Counted from the first letter of the stretch, positions 9,605 to 64,000 are shown. The stretch: DNA of 64,000 nucleotides from Candidatus Latescibacterota bacterium (GCA_963422735.1 OY730476.1:768001-832000), one strand, 5' to 3'. Numbers and translations are program-made. Notes: generated by a model not told the origin, from the letters alone.

Positions 9605-9605
9605 T

Positions 9606-47089: not shown

Positions 47090-47343
47090 AGCAAGCCGCG
47101 TTGCCGCAGCCACGCCGCGACATCCTCGCCTCCCACATCGGCCAGCGCAACGCCGTCGATTTCAACGCCGGGCCAAGCGTACTGCCGGCTCTTGGCGACC
47201 ATTTCCGCAAAGGCCTTGCGGCCGCTGATAATATCCAATTCCTCGCATTGTAATCCGGCTCTATCGAGTACCGCCCGCACTCCTGGGAGCCAAAGGCAAT
47301 ACGGATTGAGATATGCTTTGATTACAGGGGTAGTCTCTTCCAC
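47083..47343 (-). CDS. Glutaredoxin-like protein (single Cys, CLWL)
   Basis: AYLNPYC, MVAKSRQ..P.VEIDG..LADVGGE; GTG start with AAGGA RBS. Confidence 0.65.
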   Translation of the reverse strand: MEETTPVIKAYLNPYCLWLPGVRAVLDRAGLQCEELDIISGRKAFAEMVAKSRQYAWPGVEIDGVALADVGGEDVAAWLRQRGLLC

Positions 47344-47433
47344 TTTGTCCTTTCCGATGTATAGGGGACGCGATATATTGAGAAAAACATATCGCCCGCC
47401 TCTCATCCCTGTCAAGGAAGGCATCTCTAATTC

Positions 47434-48261
47434 ATGAAACCTCTGATCCTGTTCCACGGAGGCTGTAACGACGGCTTCTGTGCCGCGTGGATCTACCGCC
47501 GCTACGTCAACCCGCAAGCCGAATTTAGGGCGGTTCAATACAATACCGACCCACCGGCTACGGCCGGCCGCGACGTCGTCATCCTCGACTTCAGCTACGA
47601 GCGGGTACAGCTCATGGAGATGCACGGCCACGCCCGCTCGCTCTTGGTTTTGGACCATCACGAGACGGCCGCGCATGACTTAGCCGGGCTCGACTATTGC
47701 GTGTTCGCCGAGGACAAGTCTGGGGGGCGCATGACTTGGGAATACTTTTTCGACCCCCGCTCTCAGGCCAGTATCGACGACGTCCCCTGGCTGGTGGCCT
47801 ATACCGAAGACCGCGATCTGTGGCGGTGGGCCTTGGCCGATTCCAAGGCCGTCAACGCCGCCCTCGCCTCGTACCCGCGCGACTTTGCCGTGTGGGACGA
47901 AATCGCCGCGCGAGGGCCGCAAGCCCTCGCCGTGGAAGGCCAAGCCATTCTCCGCTTCCAACACCGGCTCATCCGGCCGCGCGTCCGCTATCACGGTTGG
48001 ACCACTATTAGCGGGTTTCGCGTTCCCATTACCAATGCCACGTTTCTGACCTCTGAAATCGGCAATGCCCTCGCCGAAGGGCATCCCTTTTCCGCGGTGT
48101 TTTTCGTCCGTCCCGACAGCAAGGTCGTGTACAATCTGCGCTCCAAGGGGGACGCGGCCGCGGATGTGGGCCGCATAGCGCGCGATCACGGCGGCGGTGG
48201 GCACAAACACGCGGCGGCTTTTACCTTGGAGACTATGTTGCCGATGGAAGATGCTGCATAG
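47434..48261 (+). CDS. DHH/DHHA1 family phosphoesterase
   Basis: H..C.DG, LDFS, LDHH, DRDLW, GGGGHKHAA. Confidence 0.88.
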   Translation: MKPLILFHGGCNDGFCAAWIYRRYVNPQAEFRAVQYNTDPPATAGRDVVILDFSYERVQLMEMHGHARSLLVLDHHETAAHDLAGLDYCVFAEDKSGGRMTWEYFFDPRSQASIDDVPWLVAYTEDRDLWRWALADSKAVNAALASYPRDFAVWDEIAARGPQALAVEGQAILRFQHRLIRPRVRYHGWTTISGFRVPITNATFLTSEIGNALAEGHPFSAVFFVRPDSKVVYNLRSKGDAAADVGRIARDHGGGGHKHAAAFTLETMLPMEDAA

Positions 48262-49062
48262 ATGACCCCCGAACAGCGTTATCTATTCGACATCAACGGC
48301 TATTTGCATCTTCCCAATGTGCTTAGCGATAGCGAACTAGCGGCTGCCCGAGCGGCTGTGGACCGCTATATGGCCACGCCCGATGACGAACTGCCCGAGG
48401 GCTTTTCCCGCTCCGACGACGGCAAGTCCTACGCCAACGGCTTTGCTTTCGATAAGGCGCTTGAATCCTTGATCTTCCACCCCACCCTGTGGCCCATCAT
48501 CAAAGAGTTCACCCACGACCGGCCTGCTTTTAGCCGGGGCACCCTGTTGGTAAATAGTCACCGGCACGAGCCGCTGCGCCTGCATTGTGCCCGCGAGGAC
48601 TTTGGCTGGCAAAGTACGCGCTACGACACCCGCGAAGGCCGGATCTTCTGCGACGATTTCGTCATCTTCCCCTATTTCGACGACGTCTTCCCGGGCGACG
48701 GCGGCTTGTTGGTGGTTCCAGGCTCGCACAAGGCGGCGTTTGCGCGTCCGCCTAGCCTGTTCAACGGCGGCGTCACCACCCATTTGGAGGATTTGCCCGT
48801 TGGGGTCGTCAATGTGACGCCGCGGGCCGGAGACGCCGTGGTAATGACGGAAATGCTAGCCCACGGGACCTTGCAATGGAAGCCTAAAGATCGCTTGCGC
48901 CGCACCTTAGTGTTGCGCTACCGGCCCCAATTCAAGGGCCAAGCCGCGGTCCCGGAAGTCCTCTATGACCGCTTGTCGCCTCAGACTAGAGAGCTGATGG
49001 CCTCAGCTCACTACACCCATGTCAAGGAGATGGTCAAGAAGGGTGTAGTGCGGCTCACTTAA
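48262..49062 (+). CDS. Phytanoyl-CoA dioxygenase family protein
   Basis: YLFDINGYL, DGGLLVVPGSHK, AGD...E...HGT..W. Confidence 0.85.
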   Translation: MTPEQRYLFDINGYLHLPNVLSDSELAAARAAVDRYMATPDDELPEGFSRSDDGKSYANGFAFDKALESLIFHPTLWPIIKEFTHDRPAFSRGTLLVNSHRHEPLRLHCAREDFGWQSTRYDTREGRIFCDDFVIFPYFDDVFPGDGGLLVVPGSHKAAFARPPSLFNGGVTTHLEDLPVGVVNVTPRAGDAVVMTEMLAHGTLQWKPKDRLRRTLVLRYRPQFKGQAAVPEVLYDRLSPQTRELMASAHYTHVKEMVKKGVVRLT

Positions 49063-49075
49063 ACAAAATCAAACC

Positions 49076-49119
49076 AAAAAAACAGGCACCTGCGATGGGT
49101 CGCAAGCACCTGTTTTTTT
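49076..49119. terminator. Bidirectional terminator between dioxygenase and tRNA-Lys
   Basis: A7CAGG...CCTGT7 hairpin with inner TGCGA/TCGCA. Confidence 0.7.
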
Positions 49120-49194
49120 GGTGAGCCCACTGGGGATCGAACCCAGGACCTACGGATTAAAAGTCCGGTGCTCTACCAGCTGAGCTATAGGCTC
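49119..49194 (-). tRNA. tRNA-Lys (TTT)
   Basis: GAGCCTATAGCTCAGCTGGTAGAGC..CCGGA-CTTTTAA-TCCG..GGTTCGATCCC..GGCTCACCA. Confidence 0.96.
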
Positions 49195-49296
49195 TATCCG
49201 CGCTGTATCTAACTCAAAATAAGCGGTTTGCGTATCCATCGCAAGGCTTTGGTCAGTGGTTAGTGGCCAGTGGTCCGTCCCGTCCCGTCCACCCAA

Positions 49297-50815
49297 TTAG
49301 TAGGCCAAAGCGATTATTTTGGTTGTTTTCTGAGTCTGCGCGTCCCCTTGCACTTCAACCCGCAAAATGTAGTTTCCCGGCGCGGCCATCTGCCCGGATT
49401 CGTCTTGGCCATCCCAACTCAACTTTGTCGGCCCGGCTGTTTGCTGCTGATCGTCCAACACTCGGACTTTCCGTCCGCTCAGGTCGTAGAGTGACACGTG
49501 CAGCAAGCGGGGCTGGAGGACGTTCAACAGGGCGAATTCTATCTGCAGCAAATCGCCGATGCCATCTCCGTTGGGGGTCACGAGCGCAGCCGACAACGCG
49601 AGCCTGTCAATTAACCCAGAGCTGACGGGCAGCGACACGGCGATCGCTTCGCTGGCATCGCCCACATCCACCCGTTGCCTTATCTGTCGCTCTCCCTGGC
49701 CGCTGGCTAAGAACGCCTCGAAGGGCATCTGTTGGCGGTATATGGTGCTGGCAAAGTCGAGTTCGATCAACCCGGCTCGGACGAATGGATCGGCAAAGGC
49801 GATGTCCAAGCCGCCATCCACTAGGGTGACCTCTGCATCCAATTAGGACTTGCCAGCGCAGCGATCCGTCCGATCCCCAGAGGATATACCAAGGGAAGTG
49901 GATGGCGTTGCGCCGGATCCAGCGCCAGTCAACGCTGCTGGGCGCAATGCCGGCCAGATCGCCCAAAATTCGCACCCGATCCACCCAGTACAGGGCACCT
50001 AAGTCAAAAGTGAATTCGGTGTCGCCCGGTTGAGAAAAACCCCAGTAGCGCCAACTCGACACGATATCGCCATCGATCAGCGCGTTGCTATTGCCCGTTG
50101 ATTCGTAGCCCTCGGCCCGCGTGCCGATTTCGTTGAGGATATCGACTTGGCCGCCGCGTTCCCGCATCCCCAGCGAGATGTTGTCCCCCACGGCCTTCAC
50201 CTCAATCGAGCTGATCCCCGCCCCTTGGGTGGGCAAGTCCACTTCAATGCGGATGAATTGCAGCGGTTTAAGGCCGTATTCGATGACCACCTCCCGCTGC
50301 TGGTTGAAGCTGTAGCGAAAGCGGTCGCTATAGCGCATAATGCTCGGCAAGGGTAGTCCGGTCGAATCAAAAAAGTGCTCGCCATTGGACAGCAGAACCT
50401 GAAAAAACTCCAACGGCGGTCCATCTTCCCTGAGCTGCAAGATCACGCGCCGCGCAGAAACGACGCGACCCAGATCGAGCTCGACGTACATGCTATCGGG
50501 ATCATCGTCCCAATCGGGGCCCCAGAAGCGGCCCGAGCTCCCGTCGATCAGATTGCCAGCATCGCCGCCGTTGGAGCCTGCGGCGCGGATGCCGCCGCCG
50601 AAATTGCCAGCATTGGCGACCGCATCGATATTGCGCCGCACGAATCTGGGGCCGGCCTTCCCGCGGCGGATTTCGATTGCGTCGCCAGGCCGCTGCCACG
50701 CATCCCAATCCGCACTGGTCCCAATCCGCAGTTCTTCGCACGTCGCGGGCGAATATATCACTCCGCAGGGCAGCAAGGCCCAAAGGGCGAGCCCCAACTT
50801 GCGTTGAGTTTTCAT
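49297..50815 (-). pseudogene. Secreted discoidin-like/FlgD-Ig-tailed protein split by a frameshift (probable internal deletion near 49850)
   Basis: Signal peptide and ELDLGR/FDLGALYWVDRVR motifs in 49607..50815; TPNGDG..YDLSGRKVR..WDGQDESG..PGNY FlgD-Ig tail in another frame (49297..49842). Confidence 0.7.
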
Positions 50816-50867
50816 GGTGCGACTCCCGCGCCCGGGTGTAAGTTAGCACAAACGGCTACGCAGACAA

Positions 50868-50902
50868 AAACAAGTGCCTAGGATTTTCCCCAGCACTTGT
50901 TT
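50868..50902. repeat. 10-bp inverted repeat AAACAAGTGC-15bp-GCACTTGTTT (operator or hairpin)
   Basis: Read directly, upstream of the secreted-protein gene. Confidence 0.5.
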
Positions 50903-50980
50903 CGCGAGTGCCGGCCACGGCCAGCACAGCCCCGCGACGCCAGCAGGCGCTTTGTTAGGAACTCTAAGGGTTAGGCGAGC

Positions 50981-51017
50981 AAAAAAGCCCCAGCTTGCCG
51001 GTAGGAGACAAGCCGGG
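50981..51017 (-). terminator. Rho-independent terminator downstream of the defence island
   Basis: CCCGGCTTG/CAAGCTGGG stem followed by GC-T6 on minus strand. Confidence 0.6.
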
Positions 51018-51040
51018 AAACGCAGGGTTGTAGTCGATGT

Positions 51041-51175
51041 TTAGGGGATGGCGTACTTGAAAACAATTTGAATCAAGACCAGCACTACGGGCACTCCGAT
51101 GCTTATCGCCTTGATCGCCATCCGCACTTCGCCCTTGAGTTCGGCAACATCCTCCTTTGTCGCCAGATACTTATG
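51041..51175 (-). pseudogene. C-terminal fragment of DUF1640-like coiled-coil/TM protein
   Basis: HKYLATKEDVAELKGEVRMAIKAISIGVPVVLVLIQIVFKYAIP*; no start, cut at the island repeat. Confidence 0.5.
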
Positions 51176-51176
51176 A

Positions 51177-51251
51177 TGAGAAAACGCTACCTGTTCCCTA
51201 TCCCACGCGATACTTCGTCACGGCCTCCATATCAAGCTCAAAGCCCAGCCC
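51177..51251. repeat. Left 75-bp boundary repeat: diverged copy of the enolase-family gene 3' end
   Basis: 66/75 identical to 62115..62189; encodes GLGFELDMEAVTKYRVG* vs GLGVELDMEAVEKYRVR*. Confidence 0.92.
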
Positions 51252-51267
51252 AAGGGCGACAAAGCCA

Positions 51268-54200
51268 TCACGACGAGAGATCAACGGAGTACGGCCTATT
51301 CTTGCCCTCGCAAAAATACAGGGCCTTGAATCGGTCCATTTGTTTGATTTTGTCGATCAAGACTCGTTCCTGCTGCGAGCTCGACACATTCCGTACAAGC
51401 GACTTGGCCTCCGCTTCGGTCAACCGCAAAACGAGATAGTTGGCGATGGCCGAAAATACCGAGACGTCGAAGTCCTTCGCCTCTTGCGAGGCAAGCACTA
51501 GCGAAATACCGTATTTTCGGCACTCTTTCGCCATGGTGGGAATGAGCTTTAACCCTGCGGCTCGATGCGCCTCGTCGAAAATCAAAGCGTGCGTGATTCG
51601 ATCTTGGATCCCTCGGCGGAACATGTCTTTGTAGAGACCGTAAAACACCAACGACGCAAAGGCTCGCTGAAGGTTGTCATTCTGAGTCATGTGAATCCGA
51701 ATGACGGTCGGCTGCTCGCTCTCCCACAGACTACTGTGGGACTCACGGAGATCGAAGAACCCGTAATCTTCAAGTTCTTCCAAACGCGCAAGCAGCGTCC
51801 GCAACCCGCGGTCCGGTTTTGAATCGTCGCGCAGAATCTCGACGAAGCGACTGAACGTCGGTTCCGGCAAATCCGGGGCAGCCGCGTTGGCGTTTCCCCA
51901 CCCTACCTCAACGAAGCTTTCCTTGATGGCCCCCCGAATGCGCTCGGCCTGAATGTCGCCGAGTTCTGGGTAGATGGCTGCGAAGATATCCCGCACCGCG
52001 CCCGCCACATCGAGATGCGCCATCCAAGACTCTCGATCGACCACCTCCAGCGGGTTGAAGCCCAAACCATCAAAATCGATGAACCGAACCGAATCAGCCG
52101 ACTGCCCAAGTCGCTCGTCAATATCCTGATGATAGGAAAAGACGATCGGGCGAATACCGGCTGCCATCATCTGATTGCACAGGTTCAGCAGGCAGGTAGT
52201 CTTGCCCATACCGGGCAGCCCCGCTATCAGAAGGTGAGGGTTGCCCTGTACGGTCAGTGGCCATCGAACTTCTGTGTTGGTAAAGGGATCGGTGCCGAAA
52301 CAGATCGAGGGGGCAAACACAACGGCGTCTTTCGGCTCTCCCCCGCAGGCATCCGCATTCTCAACAGCCATATTGCCGACAGTTGTTACCGTGCTTTGTT
52401 GAACGCCTAGATCGCCGTTGTGTTGATCATGTTCCTGCTTCAACGGCTCGGGAATGTGCGCGGCCATTTCAACCCGCAAGCCCGAGTCCGGCAGCAGGCC
52501 GGGACCGCATAGGAATACCTTCGTGCTCCAATTGTCCGGAGAAATTTTCAACGGATCCGCCCCGGCATACTCAGGGCAAAACACCCAGCCGCGGTCGCCG
52601 CTTTTGTCCGTGTCCAGCCTGTAGTCGCCGCCCTTTTCGATCATGCGGTCAATCTCGGCCGCGAGTTTGGTATGCCGTGCGGCCGGTAAATGGTGCCTAC
52701 GCGCCTTATCTGCATAGAAGTGCAGTACCCGGGCCAGTTTGGCACGACGAACTGCTCTGAACGCAGAGCACTCTTCATGCGAATACCAGTCGTTCCAACG
52801 CTTGCTCACCTCAGCGGTCTGCTCCTGAATGCGGCGCAGGATGTCCGGGGACCTTGCAGCGCGTAGATCCCGACGGTATTTGACCTCGACGAAGCGGAAC
52901 ATCAGTCCCTTTCCCGGTGCCGTGGTCACGTACATCAGGTCCGGCCGCACCTCCTTCTCATCGCCGTCCTCGTCCGTCAACGGCGGCAAGAGATCCCGAA
53001 CATCATCGACGGGAACGATGAAACCGCGCTCCAGCGATACCCAGCATGAATCCGTCTCCTGTGCCTGCTGGCAATTTGCCTGCGCAACGGCGAGCGCGAT
53101 CAGTTCCGAAGTCGGCGGTTTGTCTCCAGTGAGGCGAATGGCGAGCCGGCCGCTGAGGGCCTTCAGATGCTCCAAGAGGAATTCCGCGTTGCGGCGGCTA
53201 CGGCTGAGCCCCATCTGATCCAAGGCATCATCAAGTAGGACGCGTACCTCCTCCAAATTGCTGGTAGAGGTAATTAACTGTAAGCAGCCCAAGTCCTCCC
53301 GCTCTGGAACGCAGTCAATCACGTAAGCATCGTAGATTGTCCGATTGTCCCGTGGGGAATCGAAGTACTCGATGCCGGCGTTCCGGTCCAGCGTAATGAC
53401 CCAATCGCAAAGCCGATGGAGCTCCCTGAGGCCACCCTCCTTTTCCCGCGACACCTCTGTGTACAGCACCGGCAGCTTTCCACTCACGGCACCGACATGT
53501 CGCGCCACAGCATCCTGTATGGCACCCTGCAAGTCCGCCAAGCGTTTAGTATGTGCGCGGTCCGCCGGGTGCCTTTCGCCAGCTTGCGCCAGCGGGACTG
53601 TGCTGCACCATAGCGGCGCGGGCCTAGCGGCGAAGTCGCGCACGTAGAACGAGAGCAGGCCAAACGCATGGAACATCCCGTCGCTCGGCCTCTCCCGCTC
53701 GGCCAGCCTTACCTGCGACTCGAAGGTGTCAAACGCGACCGCAACGTGGGCTGCGGTCTTAGGATCAAGCTCATTCTTGCGTGCCCAGCGCAACCTCGGC
53801 ATGTTCACGCCGCCGGGCAGACTCAGGGATTCGAGCATCCATTGATCGTCAGGTGATACCGCGCCGGCACCACTGCGCCGCCGTTCCCGCGCCTCGGCGA
53901 TGAACCGCCCGGCAATTCCGCGTTGCTCCTCAGAAGGGTACATTTCCAGCGAGAAAACGGGCGCACCCCGAGATTGCTCTTCGGAAACATCCTCGTCATC
54001 GGCCCGGCGCAGGCGGTCATGGACGCGGCCCAGCGACCGGGCGATGGTCAGGCCATCTCCCGCCCGAAGGGCGTGAACGCGGAGTAGGCGGGACGTGTTG
54101 TGGCAATCCAAGTACTTGACGACCTCGTCACCGACCACCTCTGCGCTCTGTCCCCCTACTGTCGGAGCGGCGTCCATGGACTCCCCTTCCCCCAGCGCAC

Positions 54201-56256
54201 GGGCGAGAATCGCCACCGCCGCCTTGGGCTCTTTATCTGTATCGGGGACCATGCCGACCGCATGAAAGCCAAGGGTGTCTGCAAAGACAAACGATCCGCC
54301 GTCTGGATTCGGGAGAAAAGCCGGAAACATGGCACCATCCAAGCACTGGAACTCGTCTTTTACGTCTTTTGGCTTTTGACCCTGCTCAAAGGCCGCGTGG
54401 AAAACGAGATTGTCATACGCCGCATGCCACGCAACGCGCAACGGGTGCATCGGCAAGACGATGAGGCCAATCATCCGCCCAGCAAGGGACTGCACCTCTA
54501 CAGTGTTGCACCGCGCCAAGGATGGATCGCCACTCTCCAACAATGCAGTCCAAGCGCGGGTGTACCCTTTGACCGAATCAAAGGCTTTCGCCCTATCGTC
54601 ATAAACGTGCCCCACCACACCGCCGCCCTCGCGGACGCAGTCGGCTAATTTTCGGCTCGCCACGGTGGCTTTCTCCCATGTCGGCCCTTCATCCTCATGG
54701 TGAATGAACTCCACGTCTCCCGCTCGGGCACCGGACGCACGCACCTTGACGCGCCAGCGCCCAATGGCTCCGCCTCGCTCCGTCCACTGCTTTTCCACGT
54801 CGCGGAGCAGCGGCGGGCAGGGGACGCGAAAACTCAATCTTTTTGTACCCACAGATGTGCGTAACAGCACGAAATTGCTCTTCGCATCAAAGCTGAAATT
54901 CGCCGGACGGTCGGCGATGGCGGACGCGCTCTCCCGCTCATCGAGCTCGACCAACCCCTCGCTGAACGCACGGACCTTTCGGCCAGCCCCTCCAGCGGTC
55001 TTTTCGGGTGGCTCGCCAAAGCGGATGATGAACTCCTCGCTCTCTTGCGGTTCGACTGCGTCGTTCCCCACCACGGAAACCACCACTTTGGCGGAGACCA
55101 GAGAGTCTTCGTTCAGCATTGAAAAGTCATCGTTGCTGAACCGGCACTTCTCCTCTTTTCTCGCCGCGTGACTCACGTTATGCACGGATAGCTCTTCATC
55201 CACGCCGGTTACTATGGCAACGCGGTACTCTACGGCATTCTTTGCCAAATTGCCGGGTCGCGCCTTCCAGCGGACCTCCAGCTTTGAATAGTCCGACGAC
55301 GACATGGGCTCGGGCTTCAGGATCAGAACCGGTAGTTGCTGGCTGAGGTCTTCAACCAGCGATTTCACTTCGGGTTCTAATCCCGACCACTTGGCTATCG
55401 CGCCGTTCCGGTTGCGCCAAGACGTAAGTTCGATGGCTTGAATGTCATGGGCACTCTCTATCTGCAATGCGCCCACCCATAGTTTTTGCTTGTCGGCCAG
55501 TGCCGCCAACGCCGACAGCAGCGATTGGGTTTGTGCGGTGTGCAGAAAAACTTCGAGATCGCGGCGTTGCTCACCTGTCGGCTCCGCCAGCCGCAGCGAC
55601 TCAATACGCACCGGGATAGTCAGCCCAGAGGCCGCCGTTCTCAACAGGTGATCTACAAATCGGCGCGAGTAGTCCAAGACTTCTTCGTCCAAACCGGCGG
55701 ATTCGGCGACCGGCCACAGGCCGAGCAGGTAAAGATACGCGCCCGGATGCCGTTTGTGCGCTGCGATGCGGCAGAGAAAGTCGAATGCGGTCCAAGGCGA
55801 AACGCTGTACTGACTGCCGGATCCCTGCGCCTTTTTGATGGCCCGCTCGGCATATCGGCGATGGGTGCTCGACGACCGGCGCGTCCCCTCGGCACCAGCC
55901 AGTCGTCGAGCTTCCTTGAACAGGCTTGTCTCATCTACTTCCCGCGAGGCACTGTAGATGCCATCCATGCCGGCACCGGCAAGATGGGTATCCACCAGCA
56001 ACAGGGCGGCATCGCCTTTGGCTTCGCGCATCTCGACAGCTTGGTCCGCGGTAATGGTCCTCAGGTCTGTATCATCCGCATCCGCCACCCGCTGAACCTG
56101 CCAATTTGGTACGCGGAAGTTGTCGTCCGCCGCGAGCTTTGTCACCACATCCGGCGTCAGGCAGCGGACGAAGGCCATAGCCCCGGTTTCGGCTCGGCCA
56201 AGCACCTTCTCAAACGCCTGCCCGAGGATTTGCCCATGTAGTTTGCTCCATTCCAT
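51268..56256 (-). CDS. DptH/DndH-like protein: large N-terminal region, PD-(D/E)XK nuclease motif, C-terminal HerA/FtsK-type ATPase
   Basis: 1662 aa; RPDL..FVEVK; NPHLLIAGLPGMGKT, IFDEAH, ECRKYG..LASQ. Confidence 0.75.
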   Translation of the reverse strand: MEWSKLHGQILGQAFEKVLGRAETGAMAFVRCLTPDVVTKLAADDNFRVPNWQVQRVADADDTDLRTITADQAVEMREAKGDAALLLVDTHLAGAGMDGIYSASREVDETSLFKEARRLAGAEGTRRSSSTHRRYAERAIKKAQGSGSQYSVSPWTAFDFLCRIAAHKRHPGAYLYLLGLWPVAESAGLDEEVLDYSRRFVDHLLRTAASGLTIPVRIESLRLAEPTGEQRRDLEVFLHTAQTQSLLSALAALADKQKLWVGALQIESAHDIQAIELTSWRNRNGAIAKWSGLEPEVKSLVEDLSQQLPVLILKPEPMSSSDYSKLEVRWKARPGNLAKNAVEYRVAIVTGVDEELSVHNVSHAARKEEKCRFSNDDFSMLNEDSLVSAKVVVSVVGNDAVEPQESEEFIIRFGEPPEKTAGGAGRKVRAFSEGLVELDERESASAIADRPANFSFDAKSNFVLLRTSVGTKRLSFRVPCPPLLRDVEKQWTERGGAIGRWRVKVRASGARAGDVEFIHHEDEGPTWEKATVASRKLADCVREGGGVVGHVYDDRAKAFDSVKGYTRAWTALLESGDPSLARCNTVEVQSLAGRMIGLIVLPMHPLRVAWHAAYDNLVFHAAFEQGQKPKDVKDEFQCLDGAMFPAFLPNPDGGSFVFADTLGFHAVGMVPDTDKEPKAAVAILARALGEGESMDAAPTVGGQSAEVVGDEVVKYLDCHNTSRLLRVHALRAGDGLTIARSLGRVHDRLRRADDEDVSEEQSRGAPVFSLEMYPSEEQRGIAGRFIAEARERRRSGAGAVSPDDQWMLESLSLPGGVNMPRLRWARKNELDPKTAAHVAVAFDTFESQVRLAERERPSDGMFHAFGLLSFYVRDFAARPAPLWCSTVPLAQAGERHPADRAHTKRLADLQGAIQDAVARHVGAVSGKLPVLYTEVSREKEGGLRELHRLCDWVITLDRNAGIEYFDSPRDNRTIYDAYVIDCVPEREDLGCLQLITSTSNLEEVRVLLDDALDQMGLSRSRRNAEFLLEHLKALSGRLAIRLTGDKPPTSELIALAVAQANCQQAQETDSCWVSLERGFIVPVDDVRDLLPPLTDEDGDEKEVRPDLMYVTTAPGKGLMFRFVEVKYRRDLRAARSPDILRRIQEQTAEVSKRWNDWYSHEECSAFRAVRRAKLARVLHFYADKARRHHLPAARHTKLAAEIDRMIEKGGDYRLDTDKSGDRGWVFCPEYAGADPLKISPDNWSTKVFLCGPGLLPDSGLRVEMAAHIPEPLKQEHDQHNGDLGVQQSTVTTVGNMAVENADACGGEPKDAVVFAPSICFGTDPFTNTEVRWPLTVQGNPHLLIAGLPGMGKTTCLLNLCNQMMAAGIRPIVFSYHQDIDERLGQSADSVRFIDFDGLGFNPLEVVDRESWMAHLDVAGAVRDIFAAIYPELGDIQAERIRGAIKESFVEVGWGNANAAAPDLPEPTFSRFVEILRDDSKPDRGLRTLLARLEELEDYGFFDLRESHSSLWESEQPTVIRIHMTQNDNLQRAFASLVFYGLYKDMFRRGIQDRITHALIFDEAHRAAGLKLIPTMAKECRKYGISLVLASQEAKDFDVSVFSAIANYLVLRLTEAEAKSLVRNVSSSQQERVLIDKIKQMDRFKALYFCEGKNRPYSVDLSS

Positions 56257-56257
56257 A

Positions 56258-58054
56258 TCAGTTCTCCATCGCCGGCTTGAAGCGAGGCTCCAGCCGCTTC
56301 ATCGCTTCCGCATCGTTGACGCCCACCAAAAGCCCTAAATCGCGCAGACGCCGCTCCAGAATCGTGCGATTCCTTTGCAGCAATTCGTTGGAGATCGTCA
56401 TCCCCGACGGGGCGGTATCCACGTGTAATCCATAGCGTTCGCGCAAGACTTCGAGAAACTCCCGGAACGAAAGAGGGCGAACGCCCGGTTTGTTGCCACT
56501 TCTCAACAAGTGCAGATGCACCAGATAGTCCAGCACCGAATCAGTGAACACTAGGGAACGAACATCGCGTTTCCGGCGCGTTGTGCTCCCACCAAGACCG
56601 CGCGTCGTCGTCCTTCTAGCGGCCAGACCGTTTGGACGACCGGTGAGCAAATTCGAGTCGAGCATCGCCATGAAGTGGCTACGAGGCCCCATTAGCACCA
56701 TCAATCCATCGGCAAGCCGCCAGACCGGGTTTTCTTGGCTGGTATCGTTAGTCAAGATTTCCGCGAATTCGGGGTAGTCGTCCGCTAGTTCCTCGGCCAG
56801 TTTGTCGGCATCGTCTTCTATCCTGTCCAAAATTCTTCGTGCTTGCGGATGGCGGTCGTGCAGCAAGTCCCCCAATAGATTCAGCCAATCCGTGGCATAA
56901 GGGCGGGTAGCAATATCCTCCCTTTTGATTCTTTTATTGTCCCGCGCCCGATAGTCCAATAGCCGCAGTACCATCAAAAGGACGGGAAAACGCTCCATAC
57001 GCCGCCTATAGTCATCCATCGACTGCTCGGCCGCGTCCCGGATGCTGCGCTCGATCCCATTAGAGCAATCCACGAACAAAGGGGCGGGTAGCTGTTCATC
57101 GCGGTGCGGGACAGTACCTGTCTCCGACCACCGCAACAACAACTCGACTGTGCTAGTAAAAATAGTCGTCAGACCAATGGCAATACAGGACTCCAGCATT
57201 TCCACCAGAGCGTATCGCGGCACTGGGTTTGCGTAGGAGCGCACAAAGCGGCGGATGTCCTCGGAGAAATTCCGCGCCACTTCCTCTGCTATGGGGCGTT
57301 GATTGGAGATTGTGCCGCCCTCCTTACCCCGCATCTTGTCCGGTGCCGTCTTGAGTTGCTGCGCGAGCCGGATCATCAACAGTTGGTCCAGTCCAACGGA
57401 GTCGTCTTCCTCCTTGAACCGATCCGATGCCAAGTCGCTCAAGACCCCTCCACGGCGGGTAACGCCTTGGCCGAAGGCACCCAACAAAACGTTCTCCTCG
57501 TACTTTTTCCCCACCGGGAACCATGTTTTTTTATCGTCGCTCTGTCCGACTAACTCGCCCTTCTGATCGGCCAGCATGGCTACGATCATTTCGGGAACGT
57601 AACGGAGGTGCGCCACTGTCTCTGGAAGATCTACCCAACTCGCCATGTAATGGGCTGGGGCGACCCGCTGGATTTGCTGGTCGCGACCGAGATTGTGCTT
57701 GATATTTTCGAGACAGAAACAGAGCAATAAATCGCCAAGGATGGCTTTCTCGGCTTCGCCCTCGAAACCGCACAACTCTACTGTACCGGAAAGCCTCTCT
57801 GCGATGCGTTCTATGGTCGCTGATTGTCTTATTCGGCTAGGCGATCCATCTTTATCGCCGAAGGTTTCTAGAAATTTTCCCTTCCCTCTCCGTTCACCGA
57901 AGCGGAACATATAGAAGACCGCGGGAAGAACCGCGGAAAGCTCAAAAATCTGTACCGAGACCGGCAATACCTTGTCGTAGTTACTGGACCAGATTTCTCG
58001 GGTCATGCCGGGGCCCAGTACGTCTTCGACGAGTTTGCGCACATTATCGGCCAT
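56258..58054 (-). CDS. DptG/DndG-like protein of the defence operon
   Basis: Position between F-like and H-like genes; C-terminal FREFL..LRERYG..D..L..LGLL...ND resembles the DptG C-terminus. Confidence 0.55.
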   Translation of the reverse strand: MADNVRKLVEDVLGPGMTREIWSSNYDKVLPVSVQIFELSAVLPAVFYMFRFGERRGKGKFLETFGDKDGSPSRIRQSATIERIAERLSGTVELCGFEGEAEKAILGDLLLCFCLENIKHNLGRDQQIQRVAPAHYMASWVDLPETVAHLRYVPEMIVAMLADQKGELVGQSDDKKTWFPVGKKYEENVLLGAFGQGVTRRGGVLSDLASDRFKEEDDSVGLDQLLMIRLAQQLKTAPDKMRGKEGGTISNQRPIAEEVARNFSEDIRRFVRSYANPVPRYALVEMLESCIAIGLTTIFTSTVELLLRWSETGTVPHRDEQLPAPLFVDCSNGIERSIRDAAEQSMDDYRRRMERFPVLLMVLRLLDYRARDNKRIKREDIATRPYATDWLNLLGDLLHDRHPQARRILDRIEDDADKLAEELADDYPEFAEILTNDTSQENPVWRLADGLMVLMGPRSHFMAMLDSNLLTGRPNGLAARRTTTRGLGGSTTRRKRDVRSLVFTDSVLDYLVHLHLLRSGNKPGVRPLSFREFLEVLRERYGLHVDTAPSGMTISNELLQRNRTILERRLRDLGLLVGVNDAEAMKRLEPRFKPAMEN

Positions 58055-58061
58055 TTGTCAT

Positions 58062-61000
58062 CTACTCCTCCAGTCGCTGAATAATCATCTGTTGCTGAAC
58101 ATCGGCGCCGGCACCTTTGACGATCGCCGCAGAAACCTCGTAGATCGCCTCGTCCTGCATGTGATTCCAAGCCAACACCTTGCGGTCATCCTCGCGCACC
58201 AACCGTTGCACAAAAATCGACAAGTGGGCAAAGGTGTCATCGGTCGATACATCGCCCAACTGGTAGCCGTCGCTCAGTTCCAAAAGCAGGTGAAACAGGT
58301 CGGCACCGAGGCGGAGCCGCTCTTTACGCCCACCTCGATAGCGGTAGATCAAAAAGGCTTGGCGATGCAGCCGGTCAAGTCCTTCGGCTTCGGCTGGCAG
58401 GTCCGCTTCAAGCCGAAAGCTGGTCAGTGGCTTCTCCACCCAGAACGCGGTTTCCGTGGGCGTTCGCGGCGTGATGCGTAGCGGGACTACACCGGGGCGG
58501 TCAAGTGCTTGGGGCGGCAGACTTTCCAAACGCGCAATCCCCTCGCACAGCCTTCGGCACAGATCGTCGAGATCACCTTCGGCGCTTGGGAGATTGCTAA
58601 ACTCCCGATAATACCGCGCTTGGGCCAAGCCGAGGGCGTAAGGATCTGCGGCGAGCGCGGCGATGTCGTCTGCGGTCCATTCAAAGTAGGCCCGCCGCCG
58701 CGCTTCTTCCAGCGTCAGCCCCGGATAGTGGGGAGCACCTCCCGAGGTATCAACAGAGGGGGTTCGCAGAAGGCGTCGATCAATCTGCGGATGGGCTTCA
58801 AGGGCTGGGTCAAAGCGAATTAGCTCTTGCAACACATCTCCCTGTCGCCCCGGCGACTCCGGCGAAAAGGCGCGTTCCCAATAGGGCAACGGAGCATCCT
58901 CACCGCTGTGATAGTCGCTGCAGAAGTGAACGCCGAACAGGATATACACCAGTGCGGCCCGCAGTTCGCGGACGGTGATGTGGGTTTCGCCGCGCAGGTG
59001 AACGGCTTGCAACATCTCGAACAGTCGTTGCCGAGCGCGCTTGCGCTCATCTTCCGGGGCCATGCCGGGCAGCCCTTTGGGACCAAACCGCCGCATGGCG
59101 CGCCGGACCTCACACCGGTCTTGGGCCGAACACGTCTCGCAAGGTGCCCAAATCTGGGGGGACTTTTCTTTGCCGTAGAGGCTGTCTATCAGCTCATCGA
59201 GAAAGTCGGTTTTAATGTTTGCTTCGTCCGGCACCACGCTGCCAACAAGCGACCGTTGATTGAGGCTGATGAAGCGGATGTGCGATTCGGGCGCGGATTC
59301 CTCGCCATTGAGTAGGTTGTAGAGAGCCTGTGTCAACGGCGTTTCGGCTCTATCAATCCACTCCAAGAGACGCCCATCGTTGATCGCCAGCAGATGGACA
59401 ATGTCTTCGCCGGGCGCACCCTGTTGAAACGGCTGCAAAAATTCATCCAACAGCTCATCGGCGGAACGTCCCTGCCACGACGCCGACCCATCGAGATTCA
59501 TGCGGACAATCAGGCCATCGTCCATCGGATGCTCCAGAATGCGCTCTGAGGAATTGTGTATGCCAAACCCAAGGCGACCAGCAAGGTGCTGCAGCAACGC
59601 GGTTTTCCCGTCGCCGGCGTTGCCGCACAGGATGACGAGCCGGACTTTTCGGCACAGAATGTCGCCATACAGGGCCTCTTCGAGACGGGTTTCAACATAG
59701 GTTTGCTCGGCAAAGTTCGTGTCGAGGCCGCGTGTTTCGCTGTTTCCCCAGCGAGAGCCGGGGTAGGATTGCAGCAAGGATTGCAGCCAACGCACTTCAT
59801 TCTCACGGCGAGCGGGAGGTTCCGCTGGTGGCTCTGCGGATTCATCGGCACTTTCGGCCTCAGTGGCCGAGGGGGGACTCAAAGCGGCCTTCGCTTCATC
59901 CGCAGAAGCAAATCGCTGCTCGGGGTCGGGATCCGTCGCCTTCGCTAGGAATGCGGTGATGGTTGGATAATCCTCGCGCTCGACGCCATCCCAATTCAAG
60001 CCGCGTTCCTTGGCCCGGCTGCCATCGTACATGAACGGCTCCTTCTCGAAGAGCACCTGAAAGAAGCTCGCAGCTAACGCGAAGAAGTCGTCTGCAGGAG
60101 CGGCCGGCCGGTCTTTGGGATGTGTATGCGGGCTATATATGATGGTGCCGGGGATGACCGGCTCCCCCACCTTGGCCACGCAGTCGTAGTCCGTCAAAAC
60201 AATCTCGTCATCGGCAACGATCATGTTGCGCGGGCTGACGTCGCCATGCACCAAGCCGTTGCGATGCAGAACGTCTAATGCATCGCAAACCGTTCGCAGC
60301 CAACGCAACGCCAATGCCTCCCCCGACTCTTCGTGGAAGTCTTCGGCGAGAATCGGGAGCACACCGGCGAGCTCGCTCAAGGGTTCGCCTTCGATCCACC
60401 GCATCAAGGCAACGAAATCGTTGTCGCGCCACTCCTCCGCCGTTTCAAATATGGTCGAAAGCGCTGCCGAATCAGCGAGGTGCGAATGCGCTAAGTTGTA
60501 TGCCTGAAGGACTCGCCGACCCGTTTCTTCGTCGCTGACCACCTTGGCGACGTAGGCCCCGAGATCGCCGCCGGTCGCGCCATCGATCCGCACTACCTTG
60601 AACGTAGTTCCAACCCCGCCGGAACCGAGACGCGAAACGATTCGGTAATCCCGGCCGCGAAAGTTCACGATCTGATCTTCGGTCCAGAATCGGGCCGGTG
60701 GCGCGATGACTGCCGGCGGTTCGCCCAGCAGGTCCAACAATGAGGCGTGGAGTTTTTCCAATGTAGTTCGCGCCGCCGGATCGTCCGCCGTACCCTCGGC
60801 TAGCGCCCTGCTAGCCTCCACTTCCTGGCCGGCCTTGTCGGCCGTGTGGCCGTGTGGCCCCGTACCCTCGGCTAGCGCCCTGCTAGCCTCCACTTCTCTT
60901 CCCTCGAACAGCACGGACAGACTGGCGCACAACGAATACACATCGGATCGACGATCCGCCGCCCCAAGGCCCTGTTTGCGAATCTCGGGGGCCACCGCAA

Positions 61001-62090
61001 CATCCCACTCGTCTTCTGCCCCGCCGGAGACCGCCACTGTGACATCAGCGGGAATCCGGGCGTACTGGAAACCTGTCAAAATCGGCGTGTTGTCGTGTTT
61101 GACGAGAATCGTGCCCGGCGCAAGGTTCCGGTGCAGCATGGGTTCCTCGCCCTCACCCGGTTCGTGCAACTTCGTCAATGCTTCTACTGCTTGCCGAGCG
61201 AAGTCTAGTCGCGCCTTCGCATCCCACGTATCGTCGGTGGCGCGGTGCTCAACGCTAGGAGCCGCCGGGTCTGCGACCGTGAAGAACCACATCTCGCCAG
61301 CATACCCCGGTGCCTCTTGGAATGAATCGACAATGCGCGGTGCCCAAGCGCGAAGTTGCAACCGGTGCAGCGCGTCAAATTCCCTCCGCACCCTCGCCTC
61401 TAGGTCCCGCTGTTCGGTTGCCGACACGTCATAGAGGTGCAGCAGCACGGGATCTCGACGGGTGGAATGCACACCCTTGTAGATTCGATGCAATCGCTCG
61501 TCCGTAGGCGTCTGGAGCGTCAGATTGACATAGCCAGCCAATCGTCTCAGCGCACCGTCCACAGCCACACTGGCCTTCGGGTACAAAGCTTTGCCCAGCA
61601 TTTTGACTTGCGACGGCGATAGGAACTCTGGCGCATCCAGTGCCAAGGCACCTTGCCAAGTTTTCAATGTGTGGAACCGAACGCCGCGAACTTCCCGTCC
61701 CTCAAGCGGCTTGACTTTCGCCGCATCCTGCGTGACCAAAAACACCCCATCCACCCGGCCGAGATCCGAGATCATCCGGCGCAAAGTGGTGCCGACCTTG
61801 CGCGCCTTGTCCGTTACGCGCTCGGCTTCGCGTTCCACAAGTTCGTCGTTCCGCTTCACCCAAGCCGCGTTCCAGTGTTTGACCTCAATGACCCGAACTC
61901 CAGGCGGGCCAATGGCGACAATGTCGATTTCGTCTGATTGGCGACGATGGGTGGTGGAAAACGCGAGATTCGTCAGCAGCAACCACTCGCCATCACCTGG
62001 TTCGGCTATCAGACGAGTCTTGAGTTGGGCAATAGCCTTGCGCTCGCTCTCGTTGACGGCTGGCCCACAGCTAATAGAGGTTACTTTCAT
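58062..62090 (-). CDS. NERD nuclease - pseudokinase - Ser/Thr kinase - DptF-like P-loop NTPase fusion
   Basis: EIDIVAIG..VIEVKHW; HRNL/TGF; GSGGVG, VAK, HGDVSPRN, DYD; LCGNAGDGKT, LAINDGRL, FDPA. Confidence 0.85.
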   Translation of the reverse strand: MKVTSISCGPAVNESERKAIAQLKTRLIAEPGDGEWLLLTNLAFSTTHRRQSDEIDIVAIGPPGVRVIEVKHWNAAWVKRNDELVEREAERVTDKARKVGTTLRRMISDLGRVDGVFLVTQDAAKVKPLEGREVRGVRFHTLKTWQGALALDAPEFLSPSQVKMLGKALYPKASVAVDGALRRLAGYVNLTLQTPTDERLHRIYKGVHSTRRDPVLLHLYDVSATEQRDLEARVRREFDALHRLQLRAWAPRIVDSFQEAPGYAGEMWFFTVADPAAPSVEHRATDDTWDAKARLDFARQAVEALTKLHEPGEGEEPMLHRNLAPGTILVKHDNTPILTGFQYARIPADVTVAVSGGAEDEWDVAVAPEIRKQGLGAADRRSDVYSLCASLSVLFEGREVEASRALAEGTGPHGHTADKAGQEVEASRALAEGTADDPAARTTLEKLHASLLDLLGEPPAVIAPPARFWTEDQIVNFRGRDYRIVSRLGSGGVGTTFKVVRIDGATGGDLGAYVAKVVSDEETGRRVLQAYNLAHSHLADSAALSTIFETAEEWRDNDFVALMRWIEGEPLSELAGVLPILAEDFHEESGEALALRWLRTVCDALDVLHRNGLVHGDVSPRNMIVADDEIVLTDYDCVAKVGEPVIPGTIIYSPHTHPKDRPAAPADDFFALAASFFQVLFEKEPFMYDGSRAKERGLNWDGVEREDYPTITAFLAKATDPDPEQRFASADEAKAALSPPSATEAESADESAEPPAEPPARRENEVRWLQSLLQSYPGSRWGNSETRGLDTNFAEQTYVETRLEEALYGDILCRKVRLVILCGNAGDGKTALLQHLAGRLGFGIHNSSERILEHPMDDGLIVRMNLDGSASWQGRSADELLDEFLQPFQQGAPGEDIVHLLAINDGRLLEWIDRAETPLTQALYNLLNGEESAPESHIRFISLNQRSLVGSVVPDEANIKTDFLDELIDSLYGKEKSPQIWAPCETCSAQDRCEVRRAMRRFGPKGLPGMAPEDERKRARQRLFEMLQAVHLRGETHITVRELRAALVYILFGVHFCSDYHSGEDAPLPYWERAFSPESPGRQGDVLQELIRFDPALEAHPQIDRRLLRTPSVDTSGGAPHYPGLTLEEARRRAYFEWTADDIAALAADPYALGLAQARYYREFSNLPSAEGDLDDLCRRLCEGIARLESLPPQALDRPGVVPLRITPRTPTETAFWVEKPLTSFRLEADLPAEAEGLDRLHRQAFLIYRYRGGRKERLRLGADLFHLLLELSDGYQLGDVSTDDTFAHLSIFVQRLVREDDRKVLAWNHMQDEAIYEVSAAIVKGAGADVQQQMIIQRLEE
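60788..60896. repeat. Perfect 37-bp direct repeat (72-bp period), in-frame within the kinase gene
   Basis: CCGTACCCTCGGCTAGCGCCCTGCTAGCCTCCACTTC at 60788-60824 and 60860-60896; EVEASRALAEGT twice. Confidence 0.9.
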
Positions 62091-62114
62091 CCGTTGTCGC
62101 CTTCCATGAGCATT

Positions 62115-62189
62115 TGAGAAAACGCTAGCTTTTTCCTACCTCACGCGATACTTCTCCACGGCCTCCATATCCAGCTCAACGCCCAGCCC
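62115..62189. repeat. Right 75-bp boundary repeat (functional 3' end of the enolase-family gene)
   Basis: Matches 51177..51251 at 66/75. Confidence 0.92.
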
Positions 62190-63140
62190 GGGTGCGTCCG
62201 GCACAACGACGAAGCCATCAACCGGCGTCAGCGCACCGCCGATTAGGTCGTCCTCGCGGGTGAAGTGCAGGCTGTCGGAAGGGATGGTGGCATTGGGAAT
62301 GGTTGCGTGGACATGCGTGCCATACGCGCCCGACACGCCTAACCCCAACCCCACGACCTGCAACCAAACCGGCATCCCGGCCGCTGCAGCCATGCCGGCG
62401 CATAGCTGTGCGCTCTCGACGGTGCCGCCCAAATTGAAGCAATCGGCCGCCTCGGCGCGGATCGCGCTCATCACTATCTGCGGATTGCCTAAATGGGGCG
62501 CGAGCCGAATGCGGGTGTGACGGCGAAAGTCGCGATACTGATGCCAGCCCGGCAAGTATTGGAAGGGATCCTCAAATGCCTCGATGTGATACGGCTCTAA
62601 TGACTCGGCCAGTCGCAGACTGGTACTCAAATCGCCGAAGGTGAAATTCGGATCGACGATAATGCCGTAGTCCGGGCCGGCGGCTTTGGTCATCAGCTTG
62701 ACGGTCTCGACGAGGTTCCAAGGCCGCGCCTTGAGTTTGTGGGTCTTAAACCCTCGCTTGGCCCCTTCCTCGGCCATAGCGGCGAATTCGCGCGGCTCCA
62801 GCGGCGGCGACCACCAGCCCACCGGCACTTGGTCCCAGTGCTTGGATCCCATCAGCTTCCAAGCCGGCACCCCGAGGGCCTTGCCGACGATGTCGTACAG
62901 GGCCATGATCATCGCCCCTCCTTTATCGCCCAAGTTGACCTGCATGGGATCGACGCCGATCCACTCGGCCTCCAAGCTCGATCCGCCGCGCCCCCCTTCA
63001 CCCACCCCGCAGATGCCCTCGTCGGTATGCACTTTGATCAGGCTGATGGGCCGTTCCAAGTAATCTCCGGGACGACTCTTTTCAATTGAGGGGATATGCG
63101 GCACCGCGGTGACAAACTCTTCGAGCTGGGTGATTTTCAC
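62136..63140 (-). CDS. Mandelate racemase/muconate lactonizing enzyme family protein
   Basis: TDEG..G.GE, YDIVGKALGVP, KLK, VDPN, EDP, PGLGVELD; GTG start with AGGAGG RBS. Confidence 0.9.
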   Translation of the reverse strand: MKITQLEEFVTAVPHIPSIEKSRPGDYLERPISLIKVHTDEGICGVGEGGRGGSSLEAEWIGVDPMQVNLGDKGGAMIMALYDIVGKALGVPAWKLMGSKHWDQVPVGWWSPPLEPREFAAMAEEGAKRGFKTHKLKARPWNLVETVKLMTKAAGPDYGIIVDPNFTFGDLSTSLRLAESLEPYHIEAFEDPFQYLPGWHQYRDFRRHTRIRLAPHLGNPQIVMSAIRAEAADCFNLGGTVESAQLCAGMAAAAGMPVWLQVVGLGLGVSGAYGTHVHATIPNATIPSDSLHFTREDDLIGGALTPVDGFVVVPDAPGLGVELDMEAVEKYRVR

Positions 63141-64000
63141 GAGTACACCTCCTTTAGCCAGTCCTCGGGGATATCGAGCCCAAAGCCGGGGCCTTTGGGC
63201 AGACCGAGCCGGCCGTTTCGTGGCACGTTGGTCCCCGGCGGAACTTTGTAGTGTCGCTGCCCCCACTTTGAAGGCGTCCCGATATAGCACTCGGCTAACG
63301 GCACCCCGGGCAAAGATCCAACGAAAAACTCGATCAGCGGGGTATTGGGCATCGCCGCCGTCCAATGCTGGCCATACGGATCGTTACCCCCGGTGTGCAG
63401 GCACATCTGGACGCTTTGCGAATCGGCGTAATGGGCCAGTTTCATCGCCTCGGTGAAGCCCCCTATCCAGTAGATATCGGCTTGGATCAAATCGACGAGT
63501 CGCTCCTGCACGGCCCTCATGCCGGGATGGCGAGTGGACCAGTGCTCGCCGTCGGCCAGCGTCTGCCAAGGTACGCGCTGGCGCAGGACGCGGTGCCCCT
63601 CCCAGTCGTAGGGCATCAGCATTTCCTCCATCCAGCGCATCCGATACGGCTTGAGCGCCTCGCAGATGCGCACGGCAAAGTCGAGATCAAAGGTCATCCA
63701 GCAATCGAGCATCAAATCGGCAGACGGGCCGATTAACTCGCGGCACTTGGCCATCAGTTCGACCGTGCCGTCGATTCCGGCTTGGCCATCAATGGGTCCG
63801 TGCGGACGGGCCAACTTAAACTTTTTGAAACCCAACTCCAAGTACCAATCGACGTCATTGCCGGTAGCATAGACGTCCATCTGGGTGCGCTGCGGGCCTC
63901 CGGCCAGCCGATAGACAGGCTGGTCGAGGGTTTTGCCCCATAGATCCCACAGCGCTAGATCGACCCCGGCGACCGCCCGCGCCGTAAGCCCTTCGTTGCC
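63137..64000 (-). CDS. Enolase-superfamily dehydratase (L-rhamnonate dehydratase-like), 5' part outside window
   Basis: DLALWDLWGK, YATGND, KLA, LDCWM, WMEE, GEH, PGFG. Confidence 0.85.
   Translation of the reverse strand, partial: GNEGLTARAVAGVDLALWDLWGKTLDQPVYRLAGGPQRTQMDVYATGNDVDWYLELGFKKFKLARPHGPIDGQAGIDGTVELMAKCRELIGPSADLMLDCWMTFDLDFAVRICEALKPYRMRWMEEMLMPYDWEGHRVLRQRVPWQTLADGEHWSTRHPGMRAVQERLVDLIQADIYWIGGFTEAMKLAHYADSQSVQMCLHTGGNDPYGQHWTAAMPNTPLIEFFVGSLPGVPLAECYIGTPSKWGQRHYKVPPGTNVPRNGRLGLPKGPGFGLDIPEDWLKEVYS

Follow-up and report, generated by a model that had tools for sequence, protein, structure and literature searches.

A decaying duplicate of a host gene's end behind an integrase-free defence cassette in Candidatus Latescibacterota, and its recurrence at other loci of the genus

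How does a set of defence genes that carries no recombinase come to lie between two copies of the end of an ordinary metabolic gene? This question is raised by a 64,000-nucleotide stretch of DNA from Candidatus Latescibacterota bacterium (GCA_963422735.1, OY730476.1:768001-832000), referred to here as the window, all positions being counted from its first letter. In it, three genes that we term F, G and H are bounded by a direct repeat of the 3' end of an enolase-superfamily gene, the host gene. A reading made from the window alone (hereafter the original prediction) had described a defence island that arrived attached to a donor allele of this gene. By comparing the window with related genomes, metagenome contigs and public sequencing runs, we observed that the duplicate is old and decaying, that relatives keep empty sites, that similar structures recur at other loci with microhomology at their junctions, and that no recombinase accompanies the cassette. 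Among the mechanisms considered, we tentatively favour an insertion anchored on the host gene and joined by microhomology.

A repeat search of the 47-64 kb part of the window detected a single family of long direct repeats, 51177-51258 / 62115-62196, identical at 70 of 82 positions (85%) without gaps. The match of 66/75 originally given for 51177-51251 and 62115-62189 was reproduced, and the measurements that came with it held: the repeat covers the end of the gene, its stop codon and about 21 bp downstream, and lies 16 nt from the H stop and 24 nt from the F start. The gene-attached copy (62115..62196) consists of the last 20 codons of the host gene (58 coding nt), the TAG stop codon (62136-62138) and 21 nt downstream. 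The orphan copy (51177..51265) is a pseudogene fragment made of the host gene's 3' end and 21 nt of the leader that precedes F; as stated in the original prediction, it still translates as ...GLGFELDMEAVTKYRVG followed by a stop. When a 12-nt gap is allowed, its homology extends to 51265, into the H stop codon, where its 5' edge lies. The genome searched, G000 in what follows (G, L and X labels denote the relatives' genomes, loci and public runs), is a metagenome-assembled genome of one contig (4,953,052 bases, 95% complete, 5.3% contamination). Searching it with 51100-51300 returned two places only, the query itself and 62115-62189 (88%, E 1.3e-20).

The host gene (62136..63365, minus strand) is a 409-aa open reading frame (ORF) whose true start may lie further downstream. 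It matched Pfam MR_MLE_C (E 3.4e-33) and scored under the cut-offs of the NCBIfam acid-sugar dehydratase families; it appears to be a sugar-acid dehydratase-type member of the mandelate racemase / muconate lactonizing (MR_MLE) group. A second MR_MLE paralogue lies upstream at 63137-64000.

The public runs in which the stretch was found are mostly sponge and coral metagenomes. An 11,660-nt contig spans 49500-60817 with 0 differences in runs X15 and X19, a 6,876-nt contig of X15 spans 60867-63500, and a related strain in X1, which belongs to a separate study, bridges both junctions. In all, contigs span both junctions in four runs from three studies, and some of the runs are possibly the source sample. 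The danger of a chimeric assembly join, named in the original prediction, was not borne out, since the genome is one contig and both junctions are bridged by contigs of public runs. Circles and empty-site joints were also looked for in these runs and none was listed, the records being contigs, from which rare forms are dropped.

We compared 18 same-genus loci that carry an orthologue of the MR_MLE gene (83-93% aa identity). Fourteen are empty, the gene being followed about 40 nt after its stop by a gene for an F5/8 type C domain protein in nine and by the tRNA-Lys region in five; three bear islands (G006, G018 and G002), and one ends at a contig edge. Empty-site alleles, whose absence from relatives had been listed in the original prediction as evidence against it, thus exist at most of these loci. 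Homologues of H were detected in 9 of 31 genomes of the genus, seven of them at full or near full length. The leader between the host stop and the F start (62091..62135, minus strand, 45 nt) is kept in all island-bearing enolase loci and is found in no empty site. The MR_MLE gene is probably co-transcribed with F-G-H, because it ends 19-45 nt before F at the enolase locus and a search of the leader found neither a terminator-like site after the MR_MLE stop nor a sigma-70-like site.

The orphan differs from the gene-attached copy at 10 of 72 aligned coding columns and by a 12-nt deletion. At four positions on which 14-16 of 16 orthologues agree, the orphan alone has changed, and three of these four are at codon position 1 or 2; one change is private to the gene-attached copy. 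The gene-attached copy is nearer than the orphan to all 16 orthologues, island-free and island-bearing alike. The open 17-codon reading had been taken for the mark of another allele rather than of random decay. It is no sign of a second allele, because the orphan, with its private non-synonymous changes and its deletion, is the more diverged from every one of the 16 orthologues. Nor did the claim that the resident 3' end had been displaced by the cargo survive in its simple form: the orphan is not the untouched former end of an empty site, since it carries F leader, abuts a truncated small gene and has been trimmed from a longer orphan. The leader part amounts to 21 nt (about 30 nt with a 5-nt gap), and the join to the truncated small gene falls at a (C)TCAT common to that gene and the leader (GCTCATGG).

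The longer orphan can be traced in relatives. The same 13-14 nt (GCCTGCACTTTAC...) directly follow the H stop in G018, G043 and G007, and in G043 they continue for about 76 nt as MR_MLE sequence equivalent to window 62198-62272, the part of the gene just upstream of that kept in the window's orphan. This points to one ancestral junction between the H stop and gene position -138, common to the four species and followed by different deletions; the original orphan would have measured about 175 nt, from about -138 to about +34 around the stop codon. The window lost -138 to about -90, with a join at a TGATG common to the H end and the gene, and 12 nt more. G043 lost the 3' part of the orphan, G018 and G007 keep a stub only, and in G006 the whole orphan is gone, the H stop overlapping the ATG of the next gene. 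Two further forms were seen in run X1, one without 126 nt of spacer and leader, another in which 50834 is joined to 51266 and nothing of the orphan is left. The best reading of these observations is that the distal copy is functionless and is being deleted piecemeal, and that the insertion is old and now inert.

The cargo was described in the original prediction as a defence island without recombinase or transposase. Profile matches agree with this and suggest a three-gene cassette of MAD6/MAD7/MAD8 type (SspFGH/DndFGH-like), all on the minus strand. F (58062..62090, 1342 aa) is MAD6-like, with a NERD nuclease-like domain, a Ser/Thr kinase (Pfam NERD, Pkinase) and an SspF-like region; its PADLOC matches are MkoA, PD-T4-6 and mad6, with SspF on residues 798-1054, and it reached E 2.6e-55 and 188 bits against NCBIfam MADS6, whose cut-off is 460. 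G (56258..58054, 598 aa) is MAD7 / SspG-like, with PADLOC mad7 at E 3.7e-14, NCBIfam MADS7 at E 4.3e-41 and 141.6 bits (cut-off 410), a match to SspG at E 1e-4 over the C-terminus only, and no Pfam match. H (51268..56256, 1662 aa) is DndH / MAD8-like and ends in a HerA / FtsK-type ATPase; its PADLOC matches (DndH E 4.6e-23, mad8 9e-18, HerA) are confined to the last ~340 residues, and Pfam nSTAND3 and TrwB_AAD_bind as well as weak NCBIfam HerA and CedB matches were also obtained. Our best guess is that the three proteins form a kinase-controlled nuclease / ATPase complex that would attack foreign DNA. Within F, at positions 60788-60896, 72 nt are duplicated in tandem and in frame (exact repeat of 37 nt at a spacing of 72), a feature which the related strain of X1 does not have and which is the sole break point of the short-read contigs. 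Erosion of the cassette was seen elsewhere: F is split into two ORFs in G022 (L037 10465-14708) and lacks its N-terminal ~750 residues in G043 (L039 near 12100), and H is cut to its last ~540 nt in L126 (815-1357).

No recombinase or transposase domain was found in F, G or H, and neither a tyrosine (PF00589) nor a serine (PF00239) recombinase is encoded inside the window, flanking ORFs at 45773-50815 included; the whole genome has four tyrosine recombinases, the nearest at C1:742026, and no serine recombinase. Among one-genome-per-species contigs from at least eight phyla, the trio is intact at 20 of 26 loci. Outside the genus its identity is 52-66% aa, and the nearest outside relatives belong to other phyla. 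We scanned the flanks of 14 such loci, again from at least eight phyla: they are housekeeping genes, apart from a small number of transposase remnants and a PIN gene that precedes F in two phyla, and no integrase, dnd, ssp or mad1-5 gene lies beside the cassette in any of them. Nor do mad1-5, dndA-E or sspA-D lie beside it in the window, no genome-wide search having been made for dnd and ssp. The mad1 and mad2 PADLOC profiles were considered as evidence of a modification partner and set aside as unspecific, as they match each of the 14 control genomes and, in G000, 3 and 66 places.

Duplicated gene ends are not confined to the window. An intact gene with an orphan 3' piece behind the insert was observed in the window, G002, G022, L067 and G043, with duplicate lengths of 67, 110, ~135 and ~175 nt. 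The cassettes were placed in a maximum-likelihood tree by a quick search (14 rows, 10,765 columns; SH-like approximate likelihood-ratio test, SH-aLRT, only), in which the islands of the genus form one clade. Its basal members are G043 and G007; G000 and G006 fall together with the pair G022 and L067, and G018 is sister to L061, followed by L063, L065 and G046. The enolase locus looks ancestral and its junction oldest, because the islands at this locus are paraphyletic and span the root of the clade (SH-aLRT >=99), with at least four relocations since. Identity is mosaic along some pairs, and recombination may blur the tree.

In G022 the cassette lies behind an FdhD gene, with a VapB / PIN remnant in front. 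A 102-nt FdhD repeat (94% identical; longer with a 22-nt gap) begins 16 nt after the H stop; from this orphan to the ATG of the following gene there are 23 nt, exactly the spacing of nine genomes in which FdhD directly adjoins that gene. The complete FdhD copy borders on 328 nt also found in the alleles of G002, G010 and G024, where a small toxin-antitoxin insert is present. Again the gene-attached copy is nearer than the orphan to the relatives (9 of 9), and a scan of the FdhD region for a switch of nearest neighbour, as expected at a recombination breakpoint, gave no clear switch. The metagenome contig L126 has the same junction and the same 22-nt gap; it was the only informative one of 26 metagenome loci scanned, which were mostly distant relatives or short contigs. 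The position directly after the FdhD stop (L037 15198) is in itself a hotspot: about 17 of 29 genomes of the genus have inserts there, which measure 0.15-3.5 kb and are in some cases VapB/PIN-like; G000 has about 1 kb there (C1:441696-442693).

In L067 the inserted DNA consists of a truncated IS200 tnpA, 550 nt of AT-rich DNA and F-G-H, and on each side of it stands a copy of a 110-nt repeat, the two copies being 100% identical. This repeat comprises the last 50 nt of a beta-propeller (PQQ-propeller) gene and the last 57 nt of the convergent gene downstream, and it is colinear with five empty sites, both copies being native sequence; by virtue of the duplication, both convergent genes are whole. 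The transposase remnant of IS200 type (Y1) at the F-side edge occupies 3346-3645, and its frame continues into host sequence. In G002, an H-like ORF runs in frame into a 67-nt orphan with one mismatch to the gene's own end, after which the empty-site flank resumes. In this single diverged ORF of 1024 aa (L025 15562-18636), NERD, kinase and a HerA-like ATPase end are combined, and the final 22 codons with the stop are supplied by the MR_MLE orphan; we read it either as a compact form of the system or as a fusion in decay. In G046, the cassette replaces 89 bp of the sequence seen in G045 and no duplicate is present. Flanking repeats are not a general property of the cassette: among 21 loci from at least eight phyla, an island-end repeat was found only in L067, stubs shorter than about 25 nt being missed by this search, and weak repeat matches in L073 and L075, 1.7-5.6 kb from the island ends, were dismissed as chance.

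The ends of the insert are not alike. Five distal joins arose independently (the enolase group, G002, G022, L067 and G046); all of them lie close to the H stop, from about -6 to about +8 nt, and two of the five removed the stop codon itself. The sister islands G022 and L067 have an 8-nt tail after the H stop in common and are joined to their host genes via 3 and 5 shared nt (TGC and TGTGC, respectively); with TGATG at the secondary deletion of the window, these are the microhomologies seen, too few joins for statistics. The F side, by contrast, is bordered by 19 to ~850 nt of varied former neighbours. The repeat search of the window found no inverted repeats at the island ends. The idea that the H 3' end holds a conserved hairpin or a recombination site was rejected, RNAalifold giving -1.2 kcal/mol and no covariation over 12 islands.

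The account that we favour, without granting it an even chance, is a recombinase-independent insertion anchored on the host gene and joined by microhomology, as in homology-facilitated illegitimate recombination (HFIR) or displacement. The incoming DNA would have carried a host-gene end linked to the cassette; a homologous crossover within the gene would have anchored it, and its far end, a few nucleotides past the H stop, would have been joined by microhomology to a point of the recipient's chromosome that lies upstream of the gene's stop codon. The product would be no different if a circularised fragment had entered by a Campbell-type single crossover. The gene-attached copy would keep the host gene intact and feed transcription into the cassette. 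G022 and G002 have the appearance of recombinants of an occupied and an empty allele, such as a crossover plus an illegitimate join would give. The arrival on a donor allele put forward in the original prediction gains from these two loci, where the full gene has occupied-type sequence and the orphan stands in an empty-site context; for the window's own event, the oldest in the genus, a donor allele is putative. As to how the DNA may have entered, ComEC and DprA are present in the genome, weak evidence either way, and Ku, which would serve circularisation by non-homologous end joining, was not found in this 95%-complete genome.

Several points weigh against this account. The nearest outside relatives of the cassette are in other phyla (52-66% aa), with no evident donor MR_MLE allele for the first insertion, and a de novo insertion with target duplication fits that first arrival equally well. 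No copy can be identified as foreign, because the L067 copies are identical and both native, and the gene-attached copy is the closest to relatives in both G000 and G022. HFIR in the laboratory mostly deletes recipient DNA and does not duplicate it, ComEC and DprA occur in non-transformable bacteria too, and the cassette of G046 came with an 89-bp replacement instead of a duplicate. Anchoring on the gene also leaves the clustering of the distal ends at the H stop unexplained. Deletion trimming up to the limit set by selection, which is documented in the window and in G006, may account for the older joins; it can hardly do so for L067, whose repeats are still identical.

Possible, and the nearest competitor, is a de novo insertion with target duplication, in which a template switch (microhomology-mediated break-induced replication, MMBIR, or a process like fork stalling and template switching, FoSTeS) would copy the cassette from another molecule and re-enter the chromosome 66-175 nt behind the place at which it had left. 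Both copies would then be the recipient's own, and no donor allele would be needed. L067, with copies identical at 110/110, native and spanning two convergent gene ends so that both genes stay intact, is what this predicts, as is G002, whose copies differ at 1 of 67 positions; the variable duplicate lengths and the microhomology at the joins fit as well. It can also explain a first arrival at a new locus and from another phylum, which anchoring on a host gene cannot. Set against it, G022 and G002 combine a shared left junction of occupied type with an orphan in empty-site context, which does not result from a single insertion; the window's orphan has a leader found in no empty site; and G046 shows a deletion, not a duplication.

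It is unlikely, in our estimate, that movement of the cassette is end-defined and recombinase-free, the H stop codon being the point at which the process begins or halts. The asymmetry between a constant H side and a variable F side is what speaks for it. A nick or DNA end at the H stop, followed by unidirectional copying or transfer, would yield a constant 3' end, a variable 5' end with dragged pieces (the leader, VapB-PIN, the truncated IS200 tnpA) and target duplications that are long and differ in length. Such a signature is known from target-primed or one-ended mechanisms; if true, it would be undescribed for a bacterial defence operon.

We rate as improbable an in situ tandem duplication running from gene position -138 to the H stop, followed by microhomology deletion of the second cassette together with the 5' part of the small gene. 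The window's orphan, with its F leader and its join to the small gene at the shared (C)TCAT, has the form that such a deletion leaves, and intact small genes stand behind H in G046. The same process cannot yield the orphans of G002, G022 and L067, which are seamless with native empty-site flank, and an 11-kb tandem duplicate normally collapses by homologous recombination.

Very unlikely is an att-type integration by a tyrosine integrase acting in trans, as in cis-mobilizable elements (CIME-like), the repeats being attL and attR. Direct repeats at both ends do include a gene's 3' end, as with integrative elements, and the four tyrosine recombinases encoded elsewhere in the genome could be invoked. 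The trans-acting integrase offered as a second route in the original prediction is nevertheless at odds with the occurrence of islands at five or more loci (enolase-type, FdhD and PQQ-propeller genes) with unrelated repeats of varied length, one locus having no repeat at all. The F-side ends are variable, inverted repeats and conserved hairpins are missing from the ends, the L067 repeat spans two convergent gene ends, and the orphan common to four species is one old event, with no excised or empty forms in the runs (contigs cannot show rare ones). A self-borne integrative element was rejected, as there is no recombinase in or beside the island and no constant site or ends, and so was a transposon, as there is no transposase, no terminal inverted repeat and no short target duplication of fixed length. 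An assembly artefact or chance similarity, for which one could cite the status of the genome as a metagenome-assembled genome of the stated completeness and contamination, can practically be dismissed given the E value of the match, the bridged junctions and the homologous structures in other genomes.

Some features around the island deserve mention. Behind the orphan lies a 335-nt spacer (50842..51176, minus strand) with a 5'-truncated gene for a coiled-coil and transmembrane protein and a strong terminator at 50988-51018; of the gene, the last 45 codons only remain (51041-51176). This remnant is not in empty sites. The gene, intact in G045 and G046 and present there in two to three tandem copies (L038 of G046, 2734-3551; L053 of G045, 8693-10069), encodes a coiled coil and a C-terminal membrane helix with a weak DUF2730 match, and internal 69-nt repeats expand the coiled coil from 74 to 164 aa. 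Next comes the F5/8 type C domain gene (49607..50815, minus strand), which in empty sites is the downstream neighbour of the host gene. It lacks about 737 nt (break at 49843/49844) that run X1 and relatives have and is probably a pseudogene, its C-terminal translation being seemingly out of frame. The tRNA-Lys(UUU) (49119..49194, minus strand) marks the far edge of the interval, the island lying on its 5' side. The whole interval from the upstream flank to tRNA-Lys varies within the genus; G045 and G046 have neither of the MR_MLE genes nor the F5/8 gene (compared with G000 C1:832807 onward, just beyond the end of the window). Just upstream of the repeat, a 298-nt MR_MLE stretch (62232-62529) occurs as two alleles with 15 differences in runs X16 and X19, at depths of about 247 and 186, both flanked by identical sequence; X1 has the alternative allele. 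It looks like a short recombination tract.

Most defence islands at hotspots have no mobility genes, and their entry is usually inferred only from flanking homology. The scars described here are kept at several ages, with identities of 100%, 98.5%, 94% and 85%, down to 14-nt stubs, and provide a natural time series of the arrival, relocation and scar erasure of an integrase-free cassette within one sponge- and coral-associated Latescibacterota genus. In the practice of annotation, an att site should not be called on the sole evidence of a duplicated gene end beside an island. The spread of a MAD6-8-like trio over at least eight phyla, with no linked modification module, raises the question of how self is told from non-self. 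A search of the accessible literature for gene-end scars at defence islands found no description of them, which is not proof that there is none.

The structure nearest in appearance is that of e14 and phage 21, which insert into the 3' end of icd of E. coli, bring a substitute end and use their own integrase at one site. As there, the insert is flanked by a diverged copy of the target gene's final tens to hundreds of nucleotides and the gene is intact; unlike there, the cassette has no integrase, at least five sites, repeats of variable length and one site with no repeat. As for the cargo, F, G and H match MAD6/MAD7/MAD8 profiles and, in part, SspF, SspG and DndH, and they keep the order of a kinase protein, a middle protein and a large protein ending in a HerA / FtsK-type ATPase (PMC13662399, PMC8092258 and PMC11662687, in the parts accessible). 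The methylation-associated defence system (MADS) is presented, in the accessible part of PMC13662399, as an eight-gene operon with m6A methylation in which MAD7/MAD8 form an ATPase-nuclease module. Of mad1-mad8 only the last three genes occur here, with scores far under the NCBIfam equivalog cut-offs and no adjacent methyltransferase. The matches of the trio to DndFGH/SspFGH profiles are partial; it differs from these systems in having no adjacent phosphorothioation module and in the NERD domain that F also has.

As to the site, many hotspots of gene turnover have no mobile elements and show recombination at flanking core genes, according to the accessible part of Oliveira et al. 2017 (PMC5635113). 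From the upstream flank to tRNA-Lys, the content differs by species and includes no mobile-element genes; this interval resembles such hotspots, as does the position behind the FdhD stop. A double crossover leaves no scar, whereas here the orphans are scars of one-sided or illegitimate joins. The closest likeness of process is to the HFIR-type displacement with orphan 3' pieces proposed for Rhs, contact-dependent inhibition (CDI) and type VI secretion system (T6SS) effector-immunity loci, as far as the accessible part of Kirchberger et al. 2017 goes (PMC5361080): an intact upstream anchor, new cargo behind it, the former 3' piece kept downstream as an orphan, and no integrase. Those loci exchange polymorphic toxin tips, whereas here the end of a metabolic gene is duplicated and the cargo is a defence cassette, and the orphan, which has no immunity gene to keep it, decays; the donor allele is putative here. 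What is new here is that an ordinary gene's end is duplicated behind a defence cassette, repeatedly and at different ages.

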